Below are positions 1 through 14,292 of a stretch of DNA of 14,292 bases, piece by piece. Both the position numbers and the translations under genes were made by a program. Source of the stretch: Anaerolineae bacterium (GTDB lineage: Bacteria; Chloroflexota; Anaerolineae; DUEN01). Location: contig DAOUAJ010000382.1 in NCBI GenBank assembly GCA_034433615.1, positions 1 to 14,292 of the forward strand, written 5' to 3'. The notes beneath the pieces are model-generated. The model was not told where the DNA came from, did not search any database, and worked only from the letters and a program-made list of their open reading frames with translations. Position 1 is the first letter of the stretch. Each line of letters opens with the position of its first letter.

Positions 1-2480
1 GCTGCCGTGTGAGACGCCGTGCCGGATGCAGTATCTCGATCAGCACGCACTTCCAGGTAGACAGGCGCTTCTTCTCCGGCTTCCAACCGGATTTCTCCTG
101 CCTGGCTATCTGCGGGTGGAAAGGGAGGTTCCAGATAAGAGATCACTCCCACAGCCGTGGCCGAGAAGCCGGGCAGATCGTACAAGGTAAACGATTGTCC
201 TGGCGTCAACGCCACACGCCCCTGTAAGTCGTAGTACACGCCGTCCACCCAGGCGTCTCGTACCTTGTCCGTGATGACGTAACGCACCCCTGCCAAGTCA
301 AGTATACGACTGGCGGGGATCTCTTGCAATTGTTCGCGCAGCCGGCCGTCGGGAAGCAGGCGATCAGGGGTGATGAACAGGGTCTGGAACCAGGTATATC
401 GAGCCAGTGGCAGGATACCGCCGTCGTAGCCATCAATGCTGGGCAAGTGCAGCAGCAATGGCAGATTAGGAGCGATGATCTCCTTCAGTTTGGCTGCGAC
501 CACATAATCCCGCAAGCCAGCTTCATCCAGGTCATCGGCCAGGAGCTGGCGTATCTCTGGCAAATCGCCAGGATCGTAGTGAATGCCTGACATGGAGAGG
601 AAACGGCCAGGGGCAGCCAGCAGGTGAGCCGGCGCCGTGCGCAATGAGGTCACCGCCTGGGGAGCGGAAGGGTGGTTGAAATCCAGCGGTAGCGCTGCCG
701 CCAATAATTCACCGTAGAGTAGAAAGAGGACCAGCGGGCCGACCAGCGGGCGTAGCCGGACGGGCCACCGCTCCTGCACCAACAGACCAGCCGTGACGAC
801 CGCCAGCCCTGCCCACGCAGTGAGGGTAGCCCGGCCAGGCCACTGTTGAAGCACCAACAACGTGACCAGCAGCACACTTCCCACTCCGGCCAGGATTTGG
901 CGCCAGCGGTAAGCCATGATCCAGTCCCAGACGATGGCCATGCGAGCCCGCAGTTGCAGAGCATCAGGCATGATCAGCCGATCCAGCCCTATCCCGGCCA
1001 ACAGGGCGATGGCCAGCGCGTACCAGGCCAGCCAGCGCGGGGGCACACGAAACAGCCCGAATCCGGGGATCACTTTGTAGAACAAGGGATAGAGGGGTGT
1101 GTAGCCGCCTAAGGCCAGGAGCAGCCCGCCCGTGGCCAGCGTCGCCAGAGGCACCTGCAACGGGTGGTGCTCCGATCGCGGGGAGCCTGTCCCTGGTGTC
1201 TGTCCTGAAACTCGCCCCCCCGCGATGGGCGAAGGTCTCCTGACCGAGCCCTTTTTCGCCTCGGTCGGGAGACCTTCAGCGATCAAGGGGACGAGGGACG
1301 AAGGACGAGGGACGAGGGAGTGGGTTTTCATCGGCCGTGGCGCCGCCCGCGGCGGCATGGGGAACTGTCCTGAAAAAGGGACGAGGGACGAGGGACGAGG
1401 GACGAGGAAGCGGGTGTTCATCGGCCATGGTGCCGCCTCCGGCATGGACATCTGTCCTGCATTTTGGCCTGACGGCCAGCCTGTCTTGGCTGTCAGGCCG
1501 GGGAGCAACCCTAGCCCGGCCAGAGTGAGGCCCAGGATGCCCACGTAAGCCAGGTACTCGGAGAAAACAGGGGTGCCGAACGCGGCTTCGGGCTGCATCG
1601 CGTAAGGGGGCAGCAACGCCAGGAGCAGCATGTTCGGTTTCAATGAGAAGGCTATCGTCTCCAGGAAGCCCAGCCCGCCTGCGCGAATCGAGAGCCTGGC
1701 CAGTTCCATCGTCGGCAGAATCTGGACCGCCGAGATCGCGACAGCCAGAACCACGGCCACAGCCAGCGATCCCCATCGGGTGAGTAGTACGCCGGCCAAT
1801 GATCGAGCCCTTTGCCGCTGGCGAACAGCTTCCCAGAGCGGCCCGGCCAGCGCGTACACCCCTAATCCGGCCGTGGAGATATACGTAGCCTGAGTGTGTC
1901 CGGCCAGCAGTTGCAGCGCCAGCACCAGCGCCAGTCCCGCCAGTGGCAGCAGCCTGGCCCGTATGGTCGAGCCACACGCGACGTGATCCAGCAGAAGTAA
2001 AGCCAGAGGAAACCAGGCTAACGCGTTAATTTGGTTGATCTGGCCGGCATGCCCGGCCAGGTGCCCGCCCAGCGCATAGATCAACGCCGCCGCCAGCGCG
2101 CCGGTGCGGCTCAGACCCAGGTGGCGTGCCAACGCGTAAGTGAAGCAGCCGGCCAGCCAGATGTGCAAGACCAGTGACCAGATGAGCGCACGTTCTGGAC
2201 GCAGCCAGATCAATGGCCAATGTAGTGGGTAGAAGACGGCGGCCTGAGGGTTGGCCAGAAAAGGGACACCCAGGAAGAGATACGGGTTCCACAACGGCAA
2301 ATGACCTGCCCGCAGCGCCTCCGCGCGATAGGCCCAGTAGGGCGTGAAATAGGTGAAGGCGTCGCCCCGGGCCAGCACCTTATTCGTCAGAGCTGCGTGG
2401 CGAAAAGCCCATACGCTAAGCGCCAATAGCCCCAGCATGACCAGCAATGGTCCGACGCCCTGGCGTACTCTAGCGGCCAT
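1..2480 (-). CDS. Large polytopic membrane protein, YfhO-like (GT-C-type glycosyltransferase family); partial, 3' end lies beyond the window start (826 or more codons)
   Basis: Hand translation of the minus strand from ATG 2480-2478 runs to position 1 with no stop in frame (checked in 60-nt blocks). It is not in the ORF track because it has no stop inside the window. Listed ORFs 2026..2292 and 1276..1977 are out-of-frame shadows of it. The N-terminus (MAARVRQGVGPLLVMLGLLALSVWAF...GDAFTYFTPYWAYRAEALRAGHLPLWNPYLFLGVPFLANPQAAVFYPL) recalls the YfhO-family N-terminal motif from memory. Many TM helices are followed by a soluble C-terminal domain of roughly 230 aa (nt 1-700), which is the YfhO architecture. 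The ATG overlaps the stop of the upstream PMT_2 gene (ATGGCCGCTAG). The family call needs HMM confirmation. Confidence 0.65.
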   Translation of the reverse strand, partial: MAARVRQGVGPLLVMLGLLALSVWAFRHAALTNKVLARGDAFTYFTPYWAYRAEALRAGHLPLWNPYLFLGVPFLANPQAAVFYPLHWPLIWLRPERALIWSLVLHIWLAGCFTYALARHLGLSRTGALAAALIYALGGHLAGHAGQINQINALAWFPLALLLLDHVACGSTIRARLLPLAGLALVLALQLLAGHTQATYISTAGLGVYALAGPLWEAVRQRQRARSLAGVLLTRWGSLAVAVVLAVAISAVQILPTMELARLSIRAGGLGFLETIAFSLKPNMLLLALLPPYAMQPEAAFGTPVFSEYLAYVGILGLTLAGLGLLPGLTAKTGWPSGQNAGQMSMPEAAPWPMNTRFLVPRPSSLVPFSGQFPMPPRAAPRPMKTHSLVPRPSSLVPLIAEGLPTEAKKGSVRRPSPIAGGRVSGQTPGTGSPRSEHHPLQVPLATLATGGLLLALGGYTPLYPLFYKVIPGFGLFRVPPRWLAWYALAIALLAGIGLDRLIMPDALQLRARMAIVWDWIMAYRWRQILAGVGSVLLVTLLVLQQWPGRATLTAWAGLAVVTAGLLVQERWPVRLRPLVGPLVLFLLYGELLAAALPLDFNHPSAPQAVTSLRTAPAHLLAAPGRFLSMSGIHYDPGDLPEIRQLLADDLDEAGLRDYVVAAKLKEIIAPNLPLLLHLPSIDGYDGGILPLARYTWFQTLFITPDRLLPDGRLREQLQEIPASRILDLAGVRYVITDKVRDAWVDGVYYDLQGRVALTPGQSFTLYDLPGFSATAVGVISYLEPPFPPADSQAGEIRLEAGEEAPVYLEVRADRDTASGTASHTA
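1287..1440. repeat. Two ~60-bp direct repeat copies (1287-1347 and 1378-1440) inside the YfhO-like CDS. Each begins with tandem heptamers GGGACGA: four copies with one mismatch at 1288-1315, and three perfect copies at 1378-1398
   Basis: Seen directly: gggacgagggacgaaggacgagggacgagggagtgggttttcatcggccgtggcgccgcc versus gggacgagggacgagggacgaggaagcgggtgttcatcggccatggtgccgcctcc. On the coding (minus) strand the heptamer reads CTCGTCC, and each repeat copy encodes the peptide (N/K)T(R/H)(F/S)LVPRPSSLVP. Confidence 0.8.
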
Positions 2481-4182
2481 CAAGTTTCGTTCGCTCAATA
2501 CGATACACGACGAATGAAAGGCTGCCGTCCCCCCGATGCGTCTCGAAGCGGGGGATCATGACGATCCCGCGAGCAGCCAGCGCCGCCTGGGCCGCGTCGC
2601 GCTCAGCCAGGCGCCAACCAGGAAAAACGATGTAACGTACGATCTGAGGAGGACCGTCGGCATCGGCCACCAGCGCCTCCGTGGAGTCGTAATAACGAAA
2701 GTGGAAAGGCACATCATAGAGGTAGTAACGCCAGTGCCAGCCCAGCCAGCGATGGTATAACACCGCGCCTGAAGGCAGTTCCGATCTGAGGAAAGTGGCC
2801 ACCAGGTCAATGCCATCATACGCGCCATGGTCGGAGCCGACCGGGAAACCGCTTTTCGCTGCCGTCACGGCCGGGCTGGCCAGCATCAAGGTGAACAGGG
2901 CTGTCATCGCCAGGACGCCGGCGCGCCGCGCTGCCGGACCGAACCGCTGTTCCCAGCCGCGCAGGGTCGCTTCTGCCAGAGTCAGGACAACCCGCGCCCC
3001 CAGAAGCGCAACGATCGGCGCCAGGGGAAGTAAGTAACGATCCCAAATCTGGAAGTTGACCACGATGTGCAGCGCCATGTAGACCAGCCCGTATCCCAGT
3101 AGAATCAGATCGGTTCTCCAGGCCGTGGGCAGTACCACGGGGGAAGAAGGCCTGTTTTCAGCCTGCGGAGGCAGGCTTCGCAAAGGTAGTAGCCGCGACT
3201 TCCAGTCGCCCAGCTTCTGTCGCCATGCCTGCCACGCCAGCCCCGGCAGCCCGATGGCCAGTAGCGCGTTCAGCCAGGGCGAGCCGGTCAGATAACTCAG
3301 CCACGGCAGCCACTTGATCGCGCGGGCGGGCCACTCAGCGAGAGATGTCAGCCAAAGCCCGCCGTACGAGATGGCACTCTGCGCCAGGAACCCAGGGCGG
3401 TCAGGCGGCAGATAGCGCCAACTGTCCCACTGGATTGCCTTCCAGATCGGATAGCCCACACCCAGAACGAAGAGGCTGGCGGCAATCGGCGCACTCCAAC
3501 GCCCAGGCAACGTTGGTCCCAGGGCAGCAAGCCGGGCGATAACCGACAACCGGTAACCGAAGAGCAGATGTCTCCGCGTCTCCGTATCCTCGCGTCCTCG
3601 CGTCCCCGCGTCTCCCCTTCCTGAGATCACCCATCCCAGCCCCAAAACCAGCGGCAGGAAGAAGATCCCCTGCTGCTTGGTGATGGCGGCCATTCCGATT
3701 CCCAGCCCGGCCAGACCCCAGCCCCCGTACGCCGCCGCCAGGCAGCCAGCCAGCCCGAAGAAAATCATGAGGGGATCGGTGAAGGCGGTGGGACTGAACA
3801 GGATCGCCATAGGCGATGCGGTGAAGAGGGTCGTCGCTACCCAGGCGGTGTGCTCCCCATACAGCCGGCGGGCCAGCGCGTAGACGAGCGGGATGCTGAG
3901 AAGGCCGGCCAGCAGCCCCGGCAACCGGGCCACTACCTCACTGGGACCGAGCCAGGTGAAAAAGTGGGCCAGGACGTACAGGAAAAGGGGCGGCTTGTCT
4001 ACCGGCACCGTGCGCAGCATGACATCGCGCTGGGTACTGATCAGCAGCCCCCAGGATGCATAGAGGGCCTCATCTTGGTGAAATCGGTGCGCCCACAGTG
4101 GTGGCAGGCGTAGTAACAGCCCGGCCAGCATCATGCTGGCCAGCACCAACTTGTCGCGGAGAATCAACCCAGGCGTAGCCAT
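2470..4182 (-). CDS. PMT_2 / ArnT-like GT-C membrane glycosyltransferase (GT39/GT83-type). Start assigned to ATG 4182; the ORF-track TTG start at 4275 is the alternative
   Basis: Family hallmarks: a DE motif in the first extracytoplasmic loop (RFHQDEALYASWG), the KPPLFLYVLAHFF motif (KPPL-Y-W in ArnT/PMT_2), ARLPGLLAGLLSIPLVYALARRLYG, roughly 11-13 TM helices, and a C-terminal soluble domain of about 130 aa. ATG 4182 places TM1 (LVLASMMLAGLLL) about 12 residues in. TTG 4275 directly abuts the GT2 stop. Neither start has a strong SD. Confidence 0.75.
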   Translation of the reverse strand: MATPGLILRDKLVLASMMLAGLLLRLPPLWAHRFHQDEALYASWGLLISTQRDVMLRTVPVDKPPLFLYVLAHFFTWLGPSEVVARLPGLLAGLLSIPLVYALARRLYGEHTAWVATTLFTASPMAILFSPTAFTDPLMIFFGLAGCLAAAYGGWGLAGLGIGMAAITKQQGIFFLPLVLGLGWVISGRGDAGTRGREDTETRRHLLFGYRLSVIARLAALGPTLPGRWSAPIAASLFVLGVGYPIWKAIQWDSWRYLPPDRPGFLAQSAISYGGLWLTSLAEWPARAIKWLPWLSYLTGSPWLNALLAIGLPGLAWQAWRQKLGDWKSRLLPLRSLPPQAENRPSSPVVLPTAWRTDLILLGYGLVYMALHIVVNFQIWDRYLLPLAPIVALLGARVVLTLAEATLRGWEQRFGPAARRAGVLAMTALFTLMLASPAVTAAKSGFPVGSDHGAYDGIDLVATFLRSELPSGAVLYHRWLGWHWRYYLYDVPFHFRYYDSTEALVADADGPPQIVRYIVFPGWRLAERDAAQAALAARGIVMIPRFETHRGDGSLSFVVYRIERTKLDGR

Positions 4183-4275
4183 TGGCTCGATACTGTCCAG
4201 CACAAATCGCGTGCCGGGCCAGGTGCCGATTTCAATATGGAAGCCCGGCTCAGCACGGCAAATCCGCCAAAGCAA

Positions 4276-5283: not shown

Positions 5284-5868
5284 TCACCCTTCGCCCACCT
5301 GATGGGCCAGAATGATGGCCCAGGCGACCTCCTTCATAGGTTTACGGTTGTTCATGGACATCTTCTGAATTTTACGGAACGCCTCGGCCTCCGACAGCCC
5401 CTGGCGGTCCATGAGGATGCCTTTGGCACGATCCACTAACTTGCGCGTCTCCAGCGCCTCTTGCAGATCGTCTACCTGCTTTTGCATCTCCATGAACTCA
5501 CGAAAGCGGGCCAAAGCTACCTCGATAGCAGGAGCCAGGTCGGTCTCCCGGATTGGCTTCACCAAGTAGCCGGTCACACCAGCCTCGCGCGCGCGCGCCA
5601 CCAGGTCGTGCTGACTATAGGCGCTGAGCAGCAACACCGGAGCGATGCGCTCCTCCGTCAGAATCTTAGCCGCCTCGATGCCGTCCATATCAGGCATCTT
5701 GATGTCCATGATCACGATATCCGGCTTGAGCTCTCTGGCCAGATTCACGGCACTGCGTCCGTCGCCGACCTCCCCCACGACCAGGTAACCCAGGTTGGTT
5801 AACATCTCCCGTAGATCCAATCGGATCAATGCCTCATCGTCGGCAATCACGACCCGAGTCTTTTCCAC
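5284..5868 (-). CDS. ANTAR-domain response regulator (receiver plus ANTAR RNA-binding output; PdtaR/AmiR/NasT-like)
   Basis: Receiver motifs: VVIADDEALIRLDL, IVIMDIKMPDMDGIEAAK, VTGYLVKP. The C-terminus QEALETRKLVDRAKGILMDRQGLSEAEAFRKIQKMSMNNRKPMKEVAWAI is a typical ANTAR helix bundle. The SD GGGAGG lies 9 nt upstream of ATG 5868, 6 nt after the kinase stop. Confidence 0.85.
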   Translation of the reverse strand: MEKTRVVIADDEALIRLDLREMLTNLGYLVVGEVGDGRSAVNLARELKPDIVIMDIKMPDMDGIEAAKILTEERIAPVLLLSAYSQHDLVARAREAGVTGYLVKPIRETDLAPAIEVALARFREFMEMQKQVDDLQEALETRKLVDRAKGILMDRQGLSEAEAFRKIQKMSMNNRKPMKEVAWAIILAHQVGEG

Positions 5869-5874
5869 GGCTTA

Positions 5875-7452
5875 TCACCCTCCCAAAGGCAATTTTGGAA
5901 AAGAGACCTCAGCGACAACGCCATCCTTCTGATACAAAGAGAAGGTCCCTTTGAGATCGTCTCGAACCAAGGTTTGCACAATCTGCAGGCCCAAAGTTCG
6001 AGCCTGCTCCAACGAGAATCCCTCCGGCAGGCCGTGTCCATTGTCCACGATGCGGATCACGACCCTGTTCGCGATGTTGGTCAGATCGGCCTGAATGTGC
6101 CCCTCTTCCTCGCCATCAAATCCATGTTCCAGGGCGTTCAGGAGCAATTCGTTAAAAACCAGCGCGCAGGCAGTGGCCTGATCTTTGTGCAGATAAATGC
6201 TAGGGCCCCTCAACTCAATGCGGATGCGACAACCCGGCGCTAAAGTGACTTGCTCGGTCTGGCTGATGATGCGCTGAAACACGTCACGAATGTTGATGTG
6301 CTGCCCTCTGTCATGGGATAGATAATCATGGATGACGGCTACACTCAGGATGCGATTAATGGCCTCTTCCAGTTCGTGGCGGGCCTCCTCCGTCTGACAT
6401 CGCCTGGATTGCATACGCAGCACCGAAGCGATGTTTTGCAAGTTGTTCTTCACCCGATGATGAACTTCCTGCACCATCGCCCGTTGCACGTTCAGCTCTT
6501 GCTGCCTGTGCCGCGCTTCCGTGTCATCATGCACCAGGATCAATGCGCCCGCTTGGCGTCGGTAATTCGCCCGTCGGGATAGACGGTCACCGATGGCCGC
6601 AGGCAGCGGCCACGGAGGATCATAACGCAGCAGCGGGATCACCTGGCGAATCCAGTAGCGAGTTTGCTCTTCCCCTTCCCATTGCTGGCATAGCCCGGTT
6701 CGCAGCGCCGTGGCTACCAGCTCGTCGTCCCGAGTCTGCAGATCGCCTATCCACTTGCCGCGGAGATCTTCTAAATAACCCAGGTGACGGTACAGGTGGG
6801 TGGCAATCCCGCTTAGATAAGTGATGCGTCGTTGTAAGTCGGTGACGACGATCCCATCCCATTCGCCGAATGGTCCTAAAGCTTTTGCACCCCGCAGATC
6901 ACCCCGTATAGCCATCTGTTGAACCCAAGAAAGGGCCCGCTGGAAGACGCGAGAACGGCGGCGGTGACGCTCTCGTTCGATCAGGTTGGTCTCGATGGCT
7001 AACGCGGCAATGATCTGGCCGCGAGGGCCATAGATGGGGTAGACTTCTTGAATGACAGGGGCATCGCCCTCGACCACTCGTTGATGGTGGCCAGATACCC
7101 CATCGTTTAAAGCGCGCAAGACGAGAGGTTCGTCCGCCTGCTTGACTGTTTGCCCCAGCAACGAGTTGGGATGGAGGGGAGAGATAGAACGCGGCTGTGC
7201 CTGGGCGATGATAGCTGCCGAACGAGCGTTCAGGCGGCCGTAGAGAAGCACATCCGCCCGGCTGACTCCGGCCGTGATCGCCAAACCATCCTCCACCTGC
7301 TGGAGAAACTGAAGATCCGCATCACTCAAGCCCTGACAGCTTTTGACGATCGGGTGCATATGAGTCCATAGGCTACCAAGCCAGGCTCCCATGCCTGGGA
7401 TTCTCTTTATCAAGTGCAACATACAACAAAAGCCGACGGCATTGCAAGCCAT
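5875..7452 (-). CDS. Cytosolic sensor histidine kinase, HisKA_2 plus HATPase_c with N-terminal GAF/PAS-like sensor region (PdtaS-like). Start uncertain (7452, 7392 or 7359)
   Basis: The H-box EVHHRVKNNLQNIASVLRMQ is the HisKA_2 signature. The ATPase motifs NELLLNALEHG and DNGHGLP are present. No TM segments. The gene is immediately upstream of and cotranscribed with the ANTAR regulator. None of the three candidate ATGs has a convincing SD. Confidence 0.8.
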   Translation of the reverse strand: MACNAVGFCCMLHLIKRIPGMGAWLGSLWTHMHPIVKSCQGLSDADLQFLQQVEDGLAITAGVSRADVLLYGRLNARSAAIIAQAQPRSISPLHPNSLLGQTVKQADEPLVLRALNDGVSGHHQRVVEGDAPVIQEVYPIYGPRGQIIAALAIETNLIERERHRRRSRVFQRALSWVQQMAIRGDLRGAKALGPFGEWDGIVVTDLQRRITYLSGIATHLYRHLGYLEDLRGKWIGDLQTRDDELVATALRTGLCQQWEGEEQTRYWIRQVIPLLRYDPPWPLPAAIGDRLSRRANYRRQAGALILVHDDTEARHRQQELNVQRAMVQEVHHRVKNNLQNIASVLRMQSRRCQTEEARHELEEAINRILSVAVIHDYLSHDRGQHINIRDVFQRIISQTEQVTLAPGCRIRIELRGPSIYLHKDQATACALVFNELLLNALEHGFDGEEEGHIQADLTNIANRVVIRIVDNGHGLPEGFSLEQARTLGLQIVQTLVRDDLKGTFSLYQKDGVVAEVSFPKLPLGG

Positions 7453-7541: not shown

Positions 7542-7618
7542 TGGTCGGGGCGGGCGGATTTGAACCGCCGGCCACTTGAACCCCATTCAAGTGCGCTACC
7601 TGGCTGCGCTACGCCCCG
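7542..7618 (-). tRNA. tRNA-Pro (anticodon GGG), 77 nt including the encoded CCA
   Basis: Folded by hand: acceptor CGGGGCG/CGCCCCG (C1:G72, typical of bacterial tRNA-Pro), D-stem GCGC/GCGC, anticodon stem CTTGA/TCAAG with loop A-T-GGG-G-T (G37), T-stem GGCGG/CCGCC with T-loop TTCAAAT, discriminator A, CCA. Confidence 0.9.
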
Positions 7619-7902: not shown

Positions 7903-7942
7903 GGCCCATGCGGGCCACAAGCGGCCCATGCGGGCCACAAGG
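7903..7942 (+). repeat. Two tandem 20-bp direct repeats GGCCCATGCGGGCCACAAG(c/g). Each contains a short hairpin (GGCC-CAUGCG-GGCC or GGCCC-AUGC-GGGCC) and ends 5 nt before the SD
   Basis: Seen directly. 7903-7921 and 7923-7941 are identical 19-mers. They lie in the 5' leader between P2 and the AGGAGG at 7947-7952. Confidence 0.7.
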
Positions 7943-8219: not shown

Positions 8220-8298
8220 GTAGATGGCAGAAAGTTCCTTGCAGAAAGCCTGACGACTGGAAGTCGCGGGCAACGACTGCAAAGCTCACCTTCGTGGG

Positions 8299-9792
8299 CT
8301 AGGTTTCAGTCGCCTTAGTTTCTGGCGGCTCTCGGTGCTCGGACTGGACCATTGGGGGCTGGCCAATAAAGACCTGGGCGTGGGGATTTTCCATCAATTT
8401 TTCCATAGCGCTAATGTAGCGCATCCCTGCTGCGGTGTCTTCCGCGCAATGGGTCATGATCCAGCCTAGCACACGCTCGACACGTTGAGCCACGTCAGGC
8501 GGCAACTTGCGCCAGGCTTCCTCCAGGCTGTTAATGTATTCTGAGATCGCCTTCTGTCGGGCTGCCAACCGGACCTCTTCAAAGGTGCGTACTCGCTTGG
8601 CGTCCGCCTCTCCCTGGGAAATACTGAGTTGTTTCTGGCGATCAGCGATCCACACGGCCAAGACCCGATCTGCGACCTCTTCCGGCAGTGTCATCGTATT
8701 CACTGCCATCCCTATGATCTCCACACCCCATCCGCTTGTCAGCCGACGGCACTCTTCAGTCGCTTCACTTCCAATCAATTCCAGGATCGCGGCAGACGTT
8801 TCCTCAGTGATCGGGAATAGGCCCTCTAGTGTATGACGTCCGATCACACGCCGCAATGCGATCTCGGCAACACTGGTCACAGCCCGTGGCCACTCATTTG
8901 GAGCCAGCGTCACCTTTAGCATTTGTACGATGTCTTCACGGCGTGCGGGGCAGAGGCTATCTTTGATGACCCCGCTCATCTCGTCATCTCCTTCCTCACC
9001 GTCAGCCAGATCGGCTTGTGGAAACCGGTAGCCTACTGTGGCAGAGACATGAAGAAGAGAGACACCATCTGCCGTGAGTACGTCGCCTGGTTCCACTGGC
9101 AAGAACCGTGGGTTCAGCGGTACCACTCCGCGTACACGCTCAAACGGCTTCAGAGTCACGGTGCCTGGACCAACGATCCGTGTGATCTTACCACCGCGTT
9201 CGAGCACTACTGCCTGGCAAGGGCGTACCACCAGGATGCCAGGGCCTCCTAACAAGCGCAGGATGCCAGCCTTCTTCTCATCCTTGATCTCACCATCCTC
9301 CACGATGAGAAAAGGCCCTTGCAAGCCAGCGATCAAGGTTAGCAGTTGCCGCACAACTGCACTGCGACCTAAGTCGCGCAGCGGATGGGCAGCCAGTATC
9401 AGCTCACTGCTAAGGAAAGCCAGAACAAGAAGAAAGGTAACGAGCAGACTCATAGGGGTCAGGTAGCTCACTAACAGCAGGATGAAGGCCAGGGCTGCTT
9501 CCTGAATCGCCATCTCGCTGAATGGTTTGCCCAAGGAGAGGGGAATCAATGTGAGGGCTAGCCCGGTACCCGGAAATAGGATCAGCAATCCCAGGAAGGT
9601 AAATCGTCGGAAGTTCTGAGGTACGAGCAACAGGAAGCCGCTGCCCATTAATATGCTGATTATCACCAGATGGAGGAAAGCACCCGGGATGGGCACGAAA
9701 ATGGTTGCCATGCCCAACGCAATCAACACGATACCCAGAGCCAGACGAACTCCAGAGCGCTGAGGGGGCCTCACTGATAATAACGTTTCCAT
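8299..9792 (-). CDS. SPFH/band-7 (stomatin/flotillin/HflK-like) domain membrane protein with a 4-5 helix N-terminal membrane region and a C-terminal coiled-coil; 497 aa from ATG 9792
   Basis: SPFH core ILVVRPCQAVVLERGGKITRIVGPGTVTLKPFERVRGVVPLNPRFLPVEPGDVLTADGVSLLHVSATVGYRF. A coiled-coil-like stretch QGEADAKRVRTFEEVRLAARQKAISEYINSLEEAWRKL. The SD GGAGGTGA lies 4 nt upstream of ATG 9792. The track's GTG at 9816 adds 8 residues upstream of that SD. Confidence 0.85.
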   Translation of the reverse strand: METLLSVRPPQRSGVRLALGIVLIALGMATIFVPIPGAFLHLVIISILMGSGFLLLVPQNFRRFTFLGLLILFPGTGLALTLIPLSLGKPFSEMAIQEAALAFILLLVSYLTPMSLLVTFLLVLAFLSSELILAAHPLRDLGRSAVVRQLLTLIAGLQGPFLIVEDGEIKDEKKAGILRLLGGPGILVVRPCQAVVLERGGKITRIVGPGTVTLKPFERVRGVVPLNPRFLPVEPGDVLTADGVSLLHVSATVGYRFPQADLADGEEGDDEMSGVIKDSLCPARREDIVQMLKVTLAPNEWPRAVTSVAEIALRRVIGRHTLEGLFPITEETSAAILELIGSEATEECRRLTSGWGVEIIGMAVNTMTLPEEVADRVLAVWIADRQKQLSISQGEADAKRVRTFEEVRLAARQKAISEYINSLEEAWRKLPPDVAQRVERVLGWIMTHCAEDTAAGMRYISAMEKLMENPHAQVFIGQPPMVQSEHREPPETKATET

Positions 9793-9922
9793 CACTTCAC
9801 CTCCTGCAGAAGACACGAAGACCAGCTTCTAATGCGCACCCCACCTTTACGTCGCTCATCCGACATGCTAGCTTGCACAACTATATCATATTTTCTTTAT
9901 CTGGGAAAGTCTTTACCAGATT

Positions 9923-10864
9923 TTATCGAGAACGATCTTCTGGTAGAAAAGAGGCCCCCATCGCCTCCAATGCGGGGAGGCCGAACCCTTCGTAGGTGGG
10001 GATAAACAGGAAGACCTCGGCCAGCGCGTACAACGCCGGCTTGTCCTCCTCCGCGATCCAGCCGGGGAAGCGCACCCACGCCTCGATCCCGAGCTCACGG
10101 GCGAGGCGGCGAGGGTCCGGCATGAACGGGGTATCCCGAGCAGGCAAGCGGCCGGCGATGACCAGCGGCACATCACGATGTCGCCCCTGCCGCACGAGGA
10201 GGGCATACGCTGCCAGGGTGCGCTGCACGTTCTTGCGCACATCAAAGCCAGCAAAGTAGAGGATGAAACGCTGAGGAAGAGCGTAGCGCGTTCGCACCCG
10301 CTCCAGCTCCTCCACTGTGAGCGGTCGGCTATAGCGCTCGTCGGCTGCCAGGTACACTGTGTGCACCCGTTCCGGCGGGACACTCAGGTGACGGATGAGG
10401 TCCCGGCGCGAGGCCTCGGAATCGGTCAGAATCAGGTGAGCATGGCGGGCAGTGCGTGCCACCAGGGCTGTGTACAGCCGCTGTAAAAGGCCCCCGCGAT
10501 ACTCAGGCAACAGGAGCGGAATCAGGTCGTGCACGGTGACGACGAGGCGACACGGCCGCCACCACGGTGATCCCCAATAGGGCACGTGGGCTACGTCAAT
10601 GTGCAGGCGGCGGCAGGCCAGGGGGAAGGCGATCTGTTCAAACCATACCTTGGCCAGGTCCCCCTGCAGGAGGTCAAAAGGCGTAGCCGCGCACACGATT
10701 TGCCAGCCGGGTATATCAGCCACAGTCGGCACCTGCCGGGGCAATATCAGCCAACGCGCATCATCCGGCGAGACACGGGGTAGCCAGCGCACCAAGCCGT
10801 GCAAGACTTGCCCGCTGCCGGTGCCCGTCTGCCCCCAAAACCAGCCGTTTAACGCAATCCGCAT
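9923..10864 (-). CDS. GT4-family (GT-B fold) glycosyltransferase, truncated at the C-terminus. The ORF stops 4 residues after the conserved EAMA motif, so it is a probable gene remnant or pseudogene
   Basis: N-terminus MRIALNGWFWGQTGTGSGQ and C-terminus ...FIPTYEGFGLPALEAMGASFLPEDRSR* are typical of GT4. A normal GT4 continues about 70-90 aa past EAMA (xGxPVV... nucleotide-binding helices). Here the frame runs into AT-rich intergenic DNA that carries the SPFH promoter region. Confidence 0.7.
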   Translation of the reverse strand: MRIALNGWFWGQTGTGSGQVLHGLVRWLPRVSPDDARWLILPRQVPTVADIPGWQIVCAATPFDLLQGDLAKVWFEQIAFPLACRRLHIDVAHVPYWGSPWWRPCRLVVTVHDLIPLLLPEYRGGLLQRLYTALVARTARHAHLILTDSEASRRDLIRHLSVPPERVHTVYLAADERYSRPLTVEELERVRTRYALPQRFILYFAGFDVRKNVQRTLAAYALLVRQGRHRDVPLVIAGRLPARDTPFMPDPRRLARELGIEAWVRFPGWIAEEDKPALYALAEVFLFIPTYEGFGLPALEAMGASFLPEDRSR

Positions 10865-10883
10865 GTTGTCCCGAAAATAGCAC

Positions 10884-10932
10884 TCAGCGGTCAGCGATCA
10901 GCCGTCAGCGATTAGCGATCAACGATTCGCGA
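10884..10932. repeat. Degenerate tandem heptamer array, 7 copies on the plus strand: TCAGCGG TCAGCGA TCAGCCG TCAGCGA TTAGCGA TCAACGA TTCGCGA. On the downstream gene's (minus) strand this reads nnGCTGA x7
   Basis: Seen directly. It occupies the short intergenic gap between the epimerase stop (10919-10921) and the GT4 start (10864), and overlaps the last 4 codons of the epimerase. Confidence 0.75.
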
Positions 10933-11851
10933 TTAACTCGCGAAAGAACTCGACCGTGCGCGCGAGTCCTTCTTTCAGGCTGACCGTAACCTCCCATCCT
11001 AACTCCCTCTTGGCCCTGCTGGCATTCAGATAAATCCGGAAGACTTCCCCCTGTTTGGACGGACCATAATGAGCATCGCCGGAGTAGCCGGTAGCCGCCT
11101 TCAGCTCAGCGAAAATGGTATTAATGTCAGTCGGGACGCCCGAGCCGATATTGTAGACCCCTTCTCCTCGATCCAGGGCCAGCACATTGGCACGGGCGAT
11201 GTCACCCACATACACGAAGTCCCGCTGCTGCTCTCCGCTGCCGTTGATCGTGGGCTGCTTGCCCCGTAGCATCAGGCCGGTAAAGATGGCCACGACGCCG
11301 GCCTCACCAAGCGGATCCTGGCGCGGCCCGTAAACGTTGGGGTAACGCAAGCTGACGTAAGACAGTCCGTAATTATGCCGATACAGATACAGGTAATGCT
11401 CGACCGCGTGCTTACTCGCGCCATAGGGATCCAGCGGGTTGATAGGGTGATCTTCAGTGACCGGCAGAAATTCGGGTTCGCCGTACACTGCGCCTCCTGT
11501 CGAGGCGTAGATGAAACGCTGACACCCGTATTTGCGCGCCATTTCCAGCAGGAGAATGGAACCCAGGACGTTCACAGCGCCGTAGGCGATAGGCTCTTCC
11601 ATGGATTGGCGCACGTTAGCCAGCGCCGCTTGATGGCTGATCACTTCCGGACGTTCGGCAGCGAACACTTCTTCCACTTTCTCCTGCTGTCGGATGTCAA
11701 CTTTACAGAACTTTGCCTTCGGGTTCACATTCTCCCACTTGCCTGTGACCAGGTTGTCAATCACAACGACGTCGTGTCCAGCCGCAATGAACGCGTCCAC
11801 AACGTGGGAGCCGATGAACCCCGCGCCGCCTGTCACCAGAATCTTACTCAT
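10919..11851 (-). CDS. NAD-dependent nucleoside-diphosphate-sugar epimerase/dehydratase (GalE-like UDP-hexose 4-epimerase family), 310 aa from ATG 11851
   Basis: Rossmann motif MSKILVTGGAGFIGSH. Catalytic residues S in ASTGGAVYG and YxxxK in YGASKHAVEHY. The SD AGGAG lies 6 nt upstream of ATG 11851. The track's upstream extension (MRMDDSDD...) falls inside the predicted 5' UTR, downstream of the promoter. Confidence 0.85.
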   Translation of the reverse strand: MSKILVTGGAGFIGSHVVDAFIAAGHDVVVIDNLVTGKWENVNPKAKFCKVDIRQQEKVEEVFAAERPEVISHQAALANVRQSMEEPIAYGAVNVLGSILLLEMARKYGCQRFIYASTGGAVYGEPEFLPVTEDHPINPLDPYGASKHAVEHYLYLYRHNYGLSYVSLRYPNVYGPRQDPLGEAGVVAIFTGLMLRGKQPTINGSGEQQRDFVYVGDIARANVLALDRGEGVYNIGSGVPTDINTIFAELKAATGYSGDAHYGPSKQGEVFRIYLNASRAKRELGWEVTVSLKEGLARTVEFFRELIANR

Positions 11852-11910
11852 GGACACTCCTATTCTTTGATGTTTATCCGTGTCATCGGAATCGTCCATC
11901 CTCAAAAGTC

Positions 11911-11939
11911 AAGATACACAAAAGTGCACAAGCTGTCAA
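11911..11939 (-). promoter_or_regulatory. Putative promoter for the epimerase to GT4 operon (minus strand): TTGACA (reverse complement of 11934-11939), 17-nt spacer, TATCTT (reverse complement of 11911-11916)
   Basis: Consensus -35 with 17-nt spacing to a 4/6 -10 element. Gives a 5' UTR of about 53 nt. Confidence 0.4.
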
Positions 11940-12037
11940 TTGTGGCCCCTCATGCACGTGACCCGCATCTGGCAGCAGAGAGTGGCTCACCCTTCAAAGG
12001 TAGGTTTTTGTGTTGATGCGTTAACACCCAATCAGGT

Positions 12038-12160
12038 AGGCCCAGGGGGGCCTTCTGTGCAGAGGGGCTGAGGTGCAAGGGAGCTAGGGAGAATCTCTCC
12101 GCTGCTCCTCTGCCCCTCTGCTCCCTAGGGGGTGCCCTCCAAACCTCCCCTCTGGGGCTC
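12038..12160. repeat. GC-rich cluster of interleaved inverted repeats. Hairpin AGGCCC-AGGG-GGGCCT (12038-12053). IR A: GCAGAGGGGC (12059-12068) with GCCCCTCTGC (12112-12121). IR B: CTAGGGAG (12084-12091) with CTCCCTAG (12121-12128). A third CCCCTCTG copy in the palindrome CCCCTCTGGGG (12147-12157)
   Basis: Seen directly. It lies between the divergent epimerase and M50 promoters, outside both predicted transcripts. Confidence 0.5.
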
Positions 12161-12222
12161 CCATCGGGAAAAAACTGCCCCTGTGAGGAGTGGTTCACTC
12201 TTACGCGGTACGCGGTCGCCAC

Positions 12223-12251
12223 TTGGGTGAGCGAGTGAGCTGTGATATAAT
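12223..12251 (+). promoter_or_regulatory. Putative promoter for the M50 protease gene: TTGGGT (12223-12228), 17-nt spacer, TGaTATAAT (12243-12251)
   Basis: Extended -10 TG-N-TATAAT with 17-nt spacing to a 4/6 -35. The predicted transcription start falls near 12258, so ATG 12255 cannot be the start codon of the M50 gene. Confidence 0.5.
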
Positions 12252-12314
12252 CCTTTGGCAATCAGACAAGGAAGAACTAAACTCGACGAATATTGTAGAG
12301 TTACGGAGAGGAAC

Positions 12315-12959
12315 GTGTTGACTTCAGGAATATCGTTGCCAATATTGCTAGCCCGGCTGGTGATCCTGGTTATTGCGTTGAGCTTCCACGAATTCGCCCA
12401 TGCCTGGGTTGCTGTCCGCCTGGGCGATCCTACCCCCCGTTGGGAGGGACGCCTGACGCTGAACCCGCGCGCTCATCTGGATGTGTTGGGCTCGCTTATG
12501 TTCGTGATCGCTGGCTTTGGCTGGGCTAAACCGGTACGCTGGAATCCATGGAATATCCATGTGGATCAACGTTGGGGACGACTGTTGGTCGCTGCAGCGG
12601 GTCCGCTGTCTAACCTGCTGCTAGCATTCTTGATGGCGCTGATCGTCCAGGTGACCGGTCTGTCAATGACACCCCGTCGCGAGGGCATGTGGGCTGTCCT
12701 GCCGAATCCAGCGCTATTTGCCCTGCAGTTTATCTCTCTGAATGTCCTGCTCTGCTTCTTCAATCTCCTGCCCATCACGCCGCTGGACGGCTTCGAGGTT
12801 GCGACCGGGCTTTTGCCGCCGAACCTGGCATATTACTTCCGACGACTAGAACCCTATGGCCCCTTCATCTTGTTGGCTCTGATCATCCTGCCGATCAATT
12901 TGTTGGGGCTGATTTTGGGTCCACCAGTGACTGCTACGCTCCGTCTGCTGTTGGGATGA
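12315..12959 (+). CDS. M50-family (site-2-protease-like, M50B) membrane zinc metalloprotease, 214 aa from GTG 12315 (TTG 12318 is the alternative)
   Basis: HExxH motif in LSFHEFAHAWVAVRLGD. The second M50 signature FNLLPITPLDGFEV. At least four TM helices. The SD GGAGAGGA (12305-12312) lies just upstream of GTG/TTG. The track's ATG 12255 start sits inside the -10 box. Confidence 0.8.
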   Translation: MLTSGISLPILLARLVILVIALSFHEFAHAWVAVRLGDPTPRWEGRLTLNPRAHLDVLGSLMFVIAGFGWAKPVRWNPWNIHVDQRWGRLLVAAAGPLSNLLLAFLMALIVQVTGLSMTPRREGMWAVLPNPALFALQFISLNVLLCFFNLLPITPLDGFEVATGLLPPNLAYYFRRLEPYGPFILLALIILPINLLGLILGPPVTATLRLLLG

Positions 12960-12967
12960 TCTTTCCA

Positions 12968-12990
12968 GACCCTCCGCGACGAGGAGGGTC
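12968..12990 (+). other. 8-bp hairpin GACCCTCC-gcgacga-GGAGGGTC in the 53-nt gap between the M50 stop and the prephenate dehydrogenase start
   Basis: Seen directly. Followed by AAUCUAUCGUAAAG, which is not a clean U-tract. Possible attenuator or processing structure. Confidence 0.3.
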
Positions 12991-13012
12991 AATCTATCGT
13001 AAAGAAGGGAAA

Positions 13013-14017
13013 ATGGCGAAGGCAAAGATAACAATCGTAGGTCTGGGGCTTGTAGGTAGCTCCATCGGGATGGCTCTGCGTCGGGGCGAGCGCGATTTTG
13101 AGGTGACCGGCCACGACCGGGATCCGAAGGTGGCAGCAGCGGCTCATAAAGCCGGCGCGGTGGATCGCACAGAGTGGAACCTGATTCACGCGTGCGAAAA
13201 TGCATCTCTCATCATCCTGGCCTTGCCGATGATGGCGATTCGCGAGACAATGGAGGCTATCGCCAGTTATCTCAAGCCTGGCTGCGTCGTCACTGATACA
13301 GCCAGCATCAAAGTGCCCGTGCTGCAATGGGCTCAGGAGATTTTGCCGGATACGGTTCACTTCGTCGGCGGTAACCCGGTAATGAACAGCCCAGAAGGCC
13401 TCACAGGGGTCGAGGCGGCCTCGGCAGACCTGCTGCGCGGGGCCATCTACTGCCTGTGCCCTACGTCCACCACTGCCCCTGCAGCCGTACGGGTAGCCGC
13501 AGACCTGGTCAGCCGGCTCGAGGCGCAGCCACTCTTCCTGGACGCTGGAGAGCATGATGGCCTGGCAGCGGGCGTGGATCACCTGCCGGCCGTCCTGGCG
13601 GCTGTCCTCCTGGAAACGACGGCCCTGACTGCTCCGTGGCGGGAGATGCGCAAGCTGGCGGGGGGACAATACCAGGCCGTCACCCATTTCGTGTCCGGCG
13701 ATCCTGCCACCTATTGCGATGCTATCCTGGCCAACCGTGAGAACGTCGTCCGTTGGATCGACACCTTTATCGCCAACTTGCAACAGTGGCGTCAAAGAGT
13801 GGCAGATGGTCGGGGTGATGTCCTGGCAGAATCCTTCCAACGGGCGTTCGAGGCACGCGATCAGTGGCAACGGGAGAAGGCCGAGGGCCGCTGGGATGAA
13901 CGGGAGCGGATCAGCATGGAAGAAATCGGCGGTGGCTGGCGTGGGCTATTGGGCATCAGGGGGCGGCCTCACCAACCGGAAAGGACGGGAAGCAAGAGAG
14001 GTGAGAGCTATCGGTGA
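13013..14017 (+). CDS. tyrA: Prephenate/arogenate dehydrogenase (TyrA family), 334 aa
   Basis: N-terminal Rossmann motif KITIVGLGLVGSSIGMAL with HDRD. The TyrA-type core IILALPMMAIRETMEAI...GCVVTDTASIK. The SD GAAGGGA lies 3 nt upstream of ATG 13013. The track's 12689 start is an upstream extension that overlaps the M50 gene. Confidence 0.8.
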   Translation: MAKAKITIVGLGLVGSSIGMALRRGERDFEVTGHDRDPKVAAAAHKAGAVDRTEWNLIHACENASLIILALPMMAIRETMEAIASYLKPGCVVTDTASIKVPVLQWAQEILPDTVHFVGGNPVMNSPEGLTGVEAASADLLRGAIYCLCPTSTTAPAAVRVAADLVSRLEAQPLFLDAGEHDGLAAGVDHLPAVLAAVLLETTALTAPWREMRKLAGGQYQAVTHFVSGDPATYCDAILANRENVVRWIDTFIANLQQWRQRVADGRGDVLAESFQRAFEARDQWQREKAEGRWDERERISMEEIGGGWRGLLGIRGRPHQPERTGSKRGESYR

Positions 14018-14054
14018 TCAGCTTTCAGCCAGCCTGCTGATAGCTGAAAGCTGA
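14018..14054 (+). other. Perfect 12-bp stem hairpin TCAGCTTTCAGC, 13-nt loop, GCTGAAAGCTGA, immediately after the tyrA stop. No U-tract
   Basis: Seen directly. Its 3' arm forms the first units of the heptamer array at 14034-14077. Confidence 0.55.
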
Positions 14055-14077
14055 CCGCTAACTGCTGAAGGCTGACA
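14034..14077 (+). repeat. Tandem heptamer array nnGCTGA x6 (ctGCTGA taGCTGA aaGCTGA ccGCTaA ctGCTGA agGCTGA), ending 20 nt before ATG 14098
   Basis: Seen directly. It is the same motif, period and orientation relative to the downstream gene as the array at 10884-10932. Confidence 0.75.
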
Positions 14078-14097
14078 GTTAACAGGAGGAAAATCCC

Positions 14098-14292
14098 ATG
14101 CTTGAGTCTCTTTCTCACGCCCGGGTGGGACGTTCCCGGCGCATCTCCAGCTACGACGTCACCGGTCGCAACCGCGACGCCTGGCCGGTGGAGGCCGGCG
14201 AGACGAAGACGCTGGCCGACATCCAGGGTGCTGGCGTCATCCGGCATATCTGGTTCACCATCGCCTGCGATTCACCGCCGCCGGAGGACTCC
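14098..14292 (+). CDS. 5' end of a protein-coding gene (65 codons to the window edge), possibly DUF2961/GH172-like
   Basis: The SD AGGAGG lies 9 nt upstream of ATG 14098. The frame is open to the window edge and is missing from the ORF track because it has no stop. SSYDVTGRNRDAWPVEAGETKTLADIQGAGVIRHIWFT resembles the DUF2961 N-terminus from memory, with low certainty. Confidence 0.55.
   Translation, partial: MLESLSHARVGRSRRISSYDVTGRNRDAWPVEAGETKTLADIQGAGVIRHIWFTIACDSPPPEDS

Follow-up and report, generated by a model that had tools for sequence, protein, structure and literature searches.

The Chloroflexota contig DAOUAJ010000382.1, from a metagenome-assembled genome, was analysed over its whole length of 14,292 nt (hereafter the window) and carries two arrays of tandem 7-nt units built on the core GCTGA. 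Array 1 lies at the junction of a NAD-dependent epimerase gene and a GT4 gene, and array 2 occupies the gap between a prephenate dehydrogenase gene and the gene that starts at 14098. Scans of reference genomes and viral contigs support the assignment of both arrays to the GCTGA type of a family of CTGA-core heptads, of which a paired architecture is diagnostic and which extends over many phyla and into phages. With middling confidence, we regard the arrays as a dispersed repeat that resembles REPINs and would be read by a putative heptad-recognising factor, with no gene-specific role at the loci where they stand.

A family defined by its architecture

The family was surveyed by scanning one genome per species, together with viral contigs, for four perfect GCTGANN units, and the family statistics rest on the matches listed from these genome and viral scans. 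The four-unit motif was recovered from at least 120 reference-genome stretches and from no fewer than 120 viral contigs, and at many loci several separate arrays lie within 8 kb. Both observations uphold the proposal, made in an earlier sequence-only reading of the window, that the two arrays belong to a dispersed family of short tandem repeats. Among the matches listed, 43 fall in Acidobacteriota, 12 in Chloroflexota, 10 in Planctomycetota, 8 in Verrucomicrobiota and 8 in Cyanobacteriota, with 7 each in Bacteroidota and Pseudomonadota, 2 in Actinomycetota and 0 in Bacillota. These counts are strongly skewed relative to the composition of GTDB; on the matches listed, the family is concentrated in the first five of these phyla and in uncultured phages.

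The GCTGA arrays are set apart by their architecture and not by their count. Control cores of equal base composition (GTCGA and GGATC) also yielded more than 100 period-7 arrays, so the naive chance expectation (approximately one match for 20 fixed bases) is an invalid null, and the argument built on it was dropped. The controls lack the arrangement of the arms. GCTGA arrays are preceded by an upstream inverted partner in 34% of cases and ACTGA arrays in 26% (the latter figure from the viral scan), as against 4–5% for TCTGA and CCTGA and 0% for GTCGA and GGATC. Counted as an inverted arm within 300 nt, the proportion is 21–34% of GCTGA arrays and 0/120 and 0/94 in the controls. The polarity of the pairs is fixed, with 36 partner arms lying upstream and 2 downstream (121 arrays), giving the outward-facing layout (TCAGCNN)n – spacer of 5–140 nt – (GCTGANN)n.

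The arms themselves are equally characteristic. Perfect runs comprise exactly four units in 99 of 133 cases, GCTGA runs terminate in N-AGCT, and all spacer dinucleotides are identical in 20–29% of GCTGA arrays compared with 56–80% of controls. Between paired arms, the spacer bases are complementary at 30% of positions, which is about the chance level and rules out a continuous hairpin between arms; the fold therefore consists of 5-bp blocks separated by 2x2 loops and is not a copied palindrome. The window, 12 array-rich loci and the phage contig L169 gave no Rfam match to the arrays; the single Rfam match in the window is a tRNA (7545–7618). A literature search returned nothing specific on GCTGA arrays or on tandem heptamers of phages.

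Anatomy of the two window arrays

Array 1 is a solo arm of eight GCTGANN-type heptads on the minus strand (10932–10877), sense to the epimerase–GT4 transcript, and its sequence agrees letter by letter with that first read (Table 1). Four of the eight units have perfect cores (units 4–7), and the spacer is tc in five of the eight. Tandem Repeats Finder (TRF) detects period 7 at 10884–10926, plus a period-14 substructure; at the 5' end, the corresponding 14-nt (tcGCGAAtcGCTGA)x2 duplication is exposed by comparison with the strain contig L823. The epimerase open reading frame (ORF) ends with the TGA of unit 2, and units 1 and 2 are therefore coding. The distance from this stop to the GT4 ATG is 54 nt, which corrects the 55 nt previously taken to separate the two genes. 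The last perfect unit ends 19 nt before the GT4 ATG, a distance that falls to 12 nt when the degenerate unit 8 is included. The sequence ttttcggg..ATGCGGAT before GT4 is homologous to the same junction in the relative L008, placing array 1 upstream of a conserved ribosome-binding region. Array 1 folds no better than shuffled sequence (z = +0.19).

Array 2 has a right arm of seven units, five of them with perfect cores, which contains a 21-nt duplication and gives period 7/21 at 14036–14083 in TRF. The motif and 7-nt period earlier ascribed to this array thus stand, but the description was incomplete, as two inverted units precede the right arm and are separated from it by a 6-nt spacer. This left arm pairs with the units at 14043–14054 in a hairpin of -34.4 kcal/mol (z = -2.3). 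The core of array 2 shows one change in 30 positions, and its spacers differ in nearly every unit. The array begins 0 nt after the upstream stop and ends 22 nt before the downstream ATG; an AGGAGG (14084–14089) follows the right arm, before the ATG at 14098.

At neither array did a terminator scan detect the GC-rich stem-loop and trailing T tract of an intrinsic terminator. With at most one mismatch, GCTGANNGCTGA occurs at 10 sites in the window, every one of them within the two arrays; shuffled sequences contained 1.7 +/- 1.3 such sites and reached 10 in 0 of 200 shuffles.

Table 1 Positions of the array units and the gene boundaries that adjoin them
Feature	Position	Strand	Detail
Array 1, units 1–4	10932–10905	-	tcGCgaA 10932–10926, tcGtTGA 10925–10919, tcGCTaA 10918–10912, tcGCTGA 10911–10905
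Array 1, units 5–8	10904–10877	-	cgGCTGA 10904–10898, tcGCTGA 10897–10891, ccGCTGA 10890–10884, gtGCTat 10883–10877
Epimerase stop TGA	10921–10919	-	From array 1 unit 2; closes the NAD-dependent epimerase ORF 10919–11905
12 nt tttcgggacaac and GT4 ATG	10862–10876	-	ATG 10864–10862; GT4 gene 9923–10864
Array 2, left inverted arm	14018–14029	+	TCAGCttTCAGC, two units; first base directly after the prephenate dehydrogenase stop 14015–14017
Array 2, right arm	14036–14082	+	GCTGAta GCTGAaa GCTGAcc GCTaAct GCTGAag GCTGAca GtTaA

Recent gain and loss at the window loci

The genes of the window include polysaccharide-related enzymes, a PdtaS/PdtaR-like two-component pair, a band-7 protein and the prephenate dehydrogenase, and their closest named homologues come from Caldilineae and Anaerolineae. 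An identical 2.7-kb Logan contig matches the window DNA. The epimerase–GT4 gene order is syntenic in relatives, and none of seven orthologous junctions (69–82% protein identity) contains a heptamer array. Four of the seven carry an unrelated GC-rich hairpin, and the remainder have a spacer of 9–16 nt. Homology among the orthologous junctions is confined to the last ~15 nt before the GT4 ATG, and the epimerase orthologues end in unrelated short tails. Arrays of period 7 or 8 with at least three copies are lacking from 56 kb of relatives, as against at least seven, of four families, in the window.

The metagenome contig L823 is 97.2% identical to the window across 8278–14020. It retains the same eight units of array 1 with three substitutions and lacks array 2, owing to a 234-nt deletion (14021–14254) with TCA microhomology, one end of which falls at the first bases of the array. 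Taken together, the absence of arrays from orthologues and the variation in L823 indicate that the arrays are young, lineage-specific and variable. A conserved GT4 leader is ruled out by the orthologous junctions, and, as judged from these sequence comparisons, neither array is a conserved leader of the gene it precedes. The L823 deletion also takes 52 codons from the start of the gene at 14098 (junction at L823 position 5724), and by eye the frame downstream shifts to an apparent unrelated oxidoreductase; either this gene seems to be decaying in L823 or the contig is a chimera.

Copying, slippage and dense arrays in phages

Copying of arms is observed between loci that are not orthologous. 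In two Okeania species, arms at non-orthologous loci are 91–94% identical, including the spacer bases and the terminal GTAAGCAT/ATGCTTAC, and the inter-arm spacers and flanks are unrelated. In the Planctomycetota contig L025, a derived GCCGA unit is common to two array pairs. Related phages differ by one unit at the same array, (GCTGAcg)5 in one and (GCTGAcg)6 in the other, as produced by slippage, and arrays mark the ends of homology blocks between related phages. At one position (L184 ~1966–1991) in L184 and L191, two related phages of 87% identity, one carries a GCTGA array and the other (TCTGGCA)3, so different heptamer families can share a site.

The densest arrangement is found in two IMG/VR tailed-phage contigs, L169 and L177, which encode terminase, portal, protease and major capsid proteins and derive from uncultured phages of 60% GC. 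An array pair lies at nearly every junction of the structural module (terminase–portal–head) over 1500–7300 of L169 and 300–6320 of L177, and several small ORFs located between terminase and portal are each bracketed by arms. Among the cultured relatives of these phages, capsid homologues are at most 37% identical, with no DNA match, and none has arrays.

Arrays also occur inside genes and operons. Forty-seven lie within ORFs of 250–2110 amino acids, all in the antisense, stop-free orientation, and translate as ..SA(I/L/V/F)SxQxSA... An array pair separates infC from rpmI in locus L022. A Deltaproteobacteria contig (L106) with a GCTGA pair also contains an Acido-Lenti-1 RNA (RF01687, 46.8 bits) at 53–98, 2 kb from the pair and probably unrelated to it.

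Orientation, position and core constraint

The sequence-only reading held that the arrays have a fixed orientation relative to the downstream gene, which the family bears out weakly. Among solo arrays between co-directional genes, 19 are sense and 8 antisense in genomes (p = 0.05), but the viral contigs, with 26 sense and 22 antisense, show no significant bias, and roughly one array in three belongs to an inverted pair, which has no orientation. Position depends on orientation. On mechanical ORF calls, the median distance from the end of a sense arm to the next start is 22–25 nt, and antisense arms begin a median of 12 nt past the previous stop; the dependence is also found in solo arrays alone (Fisher test, p = 0.04). 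Both window arrays match the sense pattern.

As had been pointed out, repetition every 7 nt puts a TGA in each of the three frames, and unit 2 of array 1 serves as the epimerase stop. Among internal variants flanked by perfect units, GCCGA, the most frequent of them, in which the stop is lost, occurs 15 times and GCTAA, in which it is kept, 13 times. Position 1 of the core is the most tolerant (23 changes), and C2 (2 changes) and A5 (7 changes) are the least. From this spectrum, the constraint looks like recognition of N-C-Y-R-A and not like preservation of a stop; stop-codon selection, which leaves no trace in the variants, was rejected.

Interpretation of the arrays

In the reading that we favour, the two window arrays would be copies of a fast-turnover, non-coding, dispersed repeat family, here termed RCTGA-heptad arrays, which would act, much as REPINs do, as small DNA of a selfish or semi-domesticated kind. 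A typical arm comprises four or five units of (G/A)CTGA plus two free bases, ends in N-AGCT, and stands alone or in an outward-facing pair. Arms are copied between unrelated loci and are gained and lost among close relatives, and slippage lengthens or shortens them by 7, 14 or 21 nt at a time. They would persist where they are harmless, that is, between genes in either orientation and within genes only in the stop-free orientation. The combination of an invariant core, free spacers, a narrow range of arm lengths and a fixed pair polarity points to a putative protein that reads the heptads singly and may either mobilise the arrays or make use of them. Anatomy, architecture, copying, turnover and distribution are observed directly; the reading protein, mobility and neutrality towards the flanking genes are inferred.

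At the epimerase–GT4 junction, array 1 is a solo arm that would have taken the place of the hairpin found in relatives; it provides the epimerase stop and leaves the ribosome-binding region of GT4 intact. Array 2 is a short foldback occupying the gap between prephenate dehydrogenase and the next gene. As a component of this joint reading, and held with the same balanced confidence, neither array would be a gene-specific regulator.

Several observations weigh against this interpretation. This contig shows no sign of a mobilising enzyme, a target-site duplication or an excision product. The pairs at nearly every structural-module junction of some phages are dense for purely selfish DNA within a compact genome and hint at a function, and the position rule, with sense arms before starts and antisense arms after stops, hints at a role at gene boundaries; the gene calls behind the orientation and position statistics are themselves mechanical ORFs. 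Array 1, moreover, could be home-grown: AATCGCG and AATCGTT, the units at its 5' end, are similar to the CAATCG tail of the orthologues, and growth in place would also fit the tc found in five of eight spacers.

A more specific proposal, which we advance tentatively, is that RCTGA-heptad foldbacks are sites recognised by a hitherto undescribed system that bacteria of many phyla share with their phages, in which each protein subunit would bind one heptad and the arrays would serve as marks of gene boundaries, either as the ends of mobile elements or as the junctions of recombination cassettes or modules. Such a system would explain the bracketing of nearly every gene in some phages, the coincidence of arrays with the ends of homology blocks, the copying of arms and the strict polarity of pairs.

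We consider it unlikely that the arrays are cis-acting RNA elements of 5' leaders and intercistronic spacers, in which GCUGA heptads would bind an RNA-binding protein or the ribosome and tune translation or stability of the downstream gene, a role of the kind proposed for the TAACTGA repeats of Beggiatoaceae. Placement is what speaks for such an element: in the window, each array runs sense to the gene that follows and stops 19–22 nt short of its ATG, sense arms throughout the family end at a comparable median distance, genome solo arrays lean to the sense orientation, pairs occur within co-transcribed units (infC–rpmI in L022 and phage structural modules), and the TAACTGA repeats are placed in the same way (MacGregor 2015, PMC4679880). 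However, an RNA element accords poorly with the near parity of sense and antisense among viral solo arrays, with the symmetric pairs that account for a third of arrays and with the antisense arrays inside ORFs. Furthermore, all seven orthologous leaders lack an array, array 2 is dispensable in the 97% identical strain, the predicted RNA structure of array 1 is at the chance level, and no candidate binding protein was found.

It is quite unlikely that the heptads are double-stranded DNA sites for a cooperative protein with one heptad per subunit, whether a nucleoid-associated protein or global regulator, as suggested for Geobacter, or a phage repressor acting in the manner of the stoperators of mycobacteriophages. 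A precedent is the omega repressor, which binds 7-bp heptads in direct or inverted arrays. The invariance of the 5-bp core beside two free bases, the fixed arm size of 4–5 units, the use of both orientations with a fixed pair polarity and the occupation of nearly every intergenic gap in some phages are all expected of such sites. Arrays within operons and ORFs would, however, obstruct transcription, their occurrence in ~18 phyla would demand a very widely conserved binder, and presence or absence differs among close strains. We know of no such binder. A similar proposal was made by Aklujkar et al. (2009, PMC2700814) for pairs of MTYCTGA heptads.

Local microsatellites, arising by slippage in place from chance heptamers whose shared motif would be coincidental, are a very unlikely source. 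Heptamer arrays of any core are common, and Mrazek (2007; cited in PMC4679880) found heptamers to be the commonest long simple repeats. A 14-nt internal duplication lies in array 1, whose spacers are mostly tc, array 2 has a 21-nt duplication, and a one-unit change in copy number separates related phages. Against this, two arrays within 14 kb share one core, which recurs at more than 240 other loci, arms are common to non-orthologous loci, and the core of array 2 is nearly unchanged among spacers that nearly all differ. The architecture controls, which lack inverted partners (0/120 and 0/94) and mostly have identical spacers, largely refute slippage in place for the family as a whole.

Least credible, to the point of being barely tenable, is the translational insulator of the sequence-only reading, an array selected for UGA in all frames that would halt read-through or frameshifted ribosomes between cistrons: it accords with the staggered stops, with the use of unit 2 by the epimerase and with several further upstream ORFs that end within a sense array, but upstream genes have their own stops, orthologous junctions manage without an array, GCCGA is as common as GCTAA with C2 and A5 the most constrained positions, antisense arms that are stop-free on the transcribed strand are as common as sense arms, and 47 antisense arrays lie within long ORFs.

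For annotation, it follows that the window arrays should not be taken to give either GT4 or the gene at 14098 a conserved leader or a riboswitch-like regulator. The reading of one core in both orientations, at intervals of 7 nt, points to a putative recogniser. Its identification would explain a class of repeats that has been puzzling since the STRR reports of 1990, and could also reveal how phage gene modules are delimited or exchanged.

Other repeats in the window

Besides GCTGA, the window contains three more families of period-7 or period-8 arrays. (GGGACGA)4-5 arrays lie at 1288–1319 and 1377–1407, inside a 90-nt tandem duplication (1285–1443) whose 69-nt copies are 87% identical; their G3 tracts and 4-nt loops conform to a G-quadruplex motif, in which they are comparable to the GGGNATC repeats of Xanthomonas and Nostoc. 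In the Terriglobia locus L009, (GTGACGA)n arrays adjoin GCTGA pairs.

Inverted 8-mer arrays (GCAGAGGG GCTGAGGT GCAAGGGA GCTAGGGA ... GCTCCTCT GCCCCTCT GC) occupy the divergent gap upstream of the epimerase (12059–12127). This foldback has a predicted energy of -50.2 kcal/mol (z = -3.3), resembles the class 1 and 2 octamer pairs of Geobacter, and has a right arm approximately two units shorter in L823.

At 3537–3612, (CGNTAAC)3 and (GTCYCCGC)5 lie in frame within a PMT_2-family ORF (2470–4275, minus strand) and specify ..GRGDAGTRGREDTETRRHLLFGYRLSVIA.., a hydrophilic insert flanked by hydrophobic stretches. The octamer is similar to TCTCCGTS, the class 2 unit of Geobacter. Comparison of this ORF with the PMT_2 gene of L002 shows that the two are not orthologues.

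A perfect 20-nt tandem duplication of GGCCCATGCGGGCCACAAGC is present at 7903–7941, ~300 nt from the tRNA gene, which is on the minus strand. A PdtaS-like histidine kinase (GAF_PdtaS and HisKA_2 domains) and an ANTAR response regulator are neighbours within 5284–7452; no link between these and the arrays was found, and the heptad arrays presumably do not resemble the dual-hexaloop targets of ANTAR proteins.

Comparison with known repeat systems

REPINs are doublets of REP sequences that are moved by RAYT transposases (Bertels and Rainey 2011, PMC3116915). They share with the GCTGA arrays arms of ~30–35 nt, inverted doublets with variable spacers that may fold as hairpins, the occurrence of singlets, and an extragenic, dispersed distribution; the copying of REPINs within genomes has a probable counterpart in the arrays. 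In the GCTGA family, doublets account for 21–34% of arrays with strict polarity, and copying is seen in Okeania and L025, in stretches that each cover less than a whole genome. In contrast, the REP arm is an imperfect palindrome, whereas GCTGA arms are direct tandem heptads, and the REPIN system is defined by a RAYT gene flanked by REPs; no transposase is present within the 14.3-kb window contig.

The GGGNATC and GGGGA(C/T)T heptamers of Xanthomonas and Nostoc (Rehm et al. 2015, PMC4692102) also lie between genes near ORF ends on either strand, with inverted pairs in Xanthomonas, but form G-quadruplexes and have a different core. Xanthomonas heptamer positions are kept between X. campestris pv. 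campestris and X. axonopodis pv. citri (PMC4692102).

The analogy drawn earlier with the STRR heptamers of cyanobacteria applies in part. Those heptamers were reportedly described by Mazel in 1990; the 7-mers CCCCAGT, TTGGTCA and CAACAGT are fully conserved, and their hosts are heterocystous cyanobacteria. Long simple sequence repeats have units of 5–11 nt, of which heptamers are the commonest, in the account of Mrazek (2007) as cited in PMC4679880 and PMC4692102. The GCTGA arrays are of the same general kind, as tandem heptamers that are mostly intergenic, often co-transcribed and unevenly spread among genomes. Unlike an STRR, in which the full 7-mer is defined, the present unit is a five-base core followed by a free dinucleotide and the host of the window arrays is a Caldilineae-like member of the Chloroflexota, so that they are not members of that class.

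Closer in core are the TAACTGA repeats of marine Beggiatoaceae, some Cyanobacteria and Bacteroidetes, for which 169 direct sets and one indirect set were reported (MacGregor 2015, PMC4679880). They resemble the GCTGA arrays as ACTGA-core heptads in 2–6 copies, mostly sense and a few nt from start codons, sporadic across phyla and found also within ORFs and ribosomal protein operons. They differ in that the spacer is fixed (TA) and nearly all sets are direct, yet the ACTGA arrays of our viral scan do form pairs (26%).

The nearest counterpart is found in Geobacter metallireducens, where 'class 3 putative global regulator binding sites' consist of five (A/C)T(T/C)CTGA heptads in outward-facing pairs 80–110 nt apart; eight pairs were reported in the one genome and interpreted as DNA sites of the IHF/HU type for a putative global regulator (Aklujkar et al. 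2009, Additional file 9, PMC2700814). Both systems comprise approximately five tandem CTGA-core heptads in outward-facing pairs on opposite strands, both occur between genes and inside operons (proB–proA in Geobacter), and both have no assigned function. In Geobacter, however, a pyrimidine occupies the first core position, and there is partial conservation at the two 'spacer' bases. The window arrays share with the CTGA-core heptads the 7-nt unit, the conserved 3' CTGA and the intergenic position near gene boundaries; array 2 also has the outward-facing arm on the opposite strand, and array 1 is solo. CTGA-core heptads, previously noted only in passing in Geobacter and Beggiatoaceae, form one coherent family with a diagnostic architecture of a free dinucleotide, four or five units, an AGCT end and outward-facing pairs.

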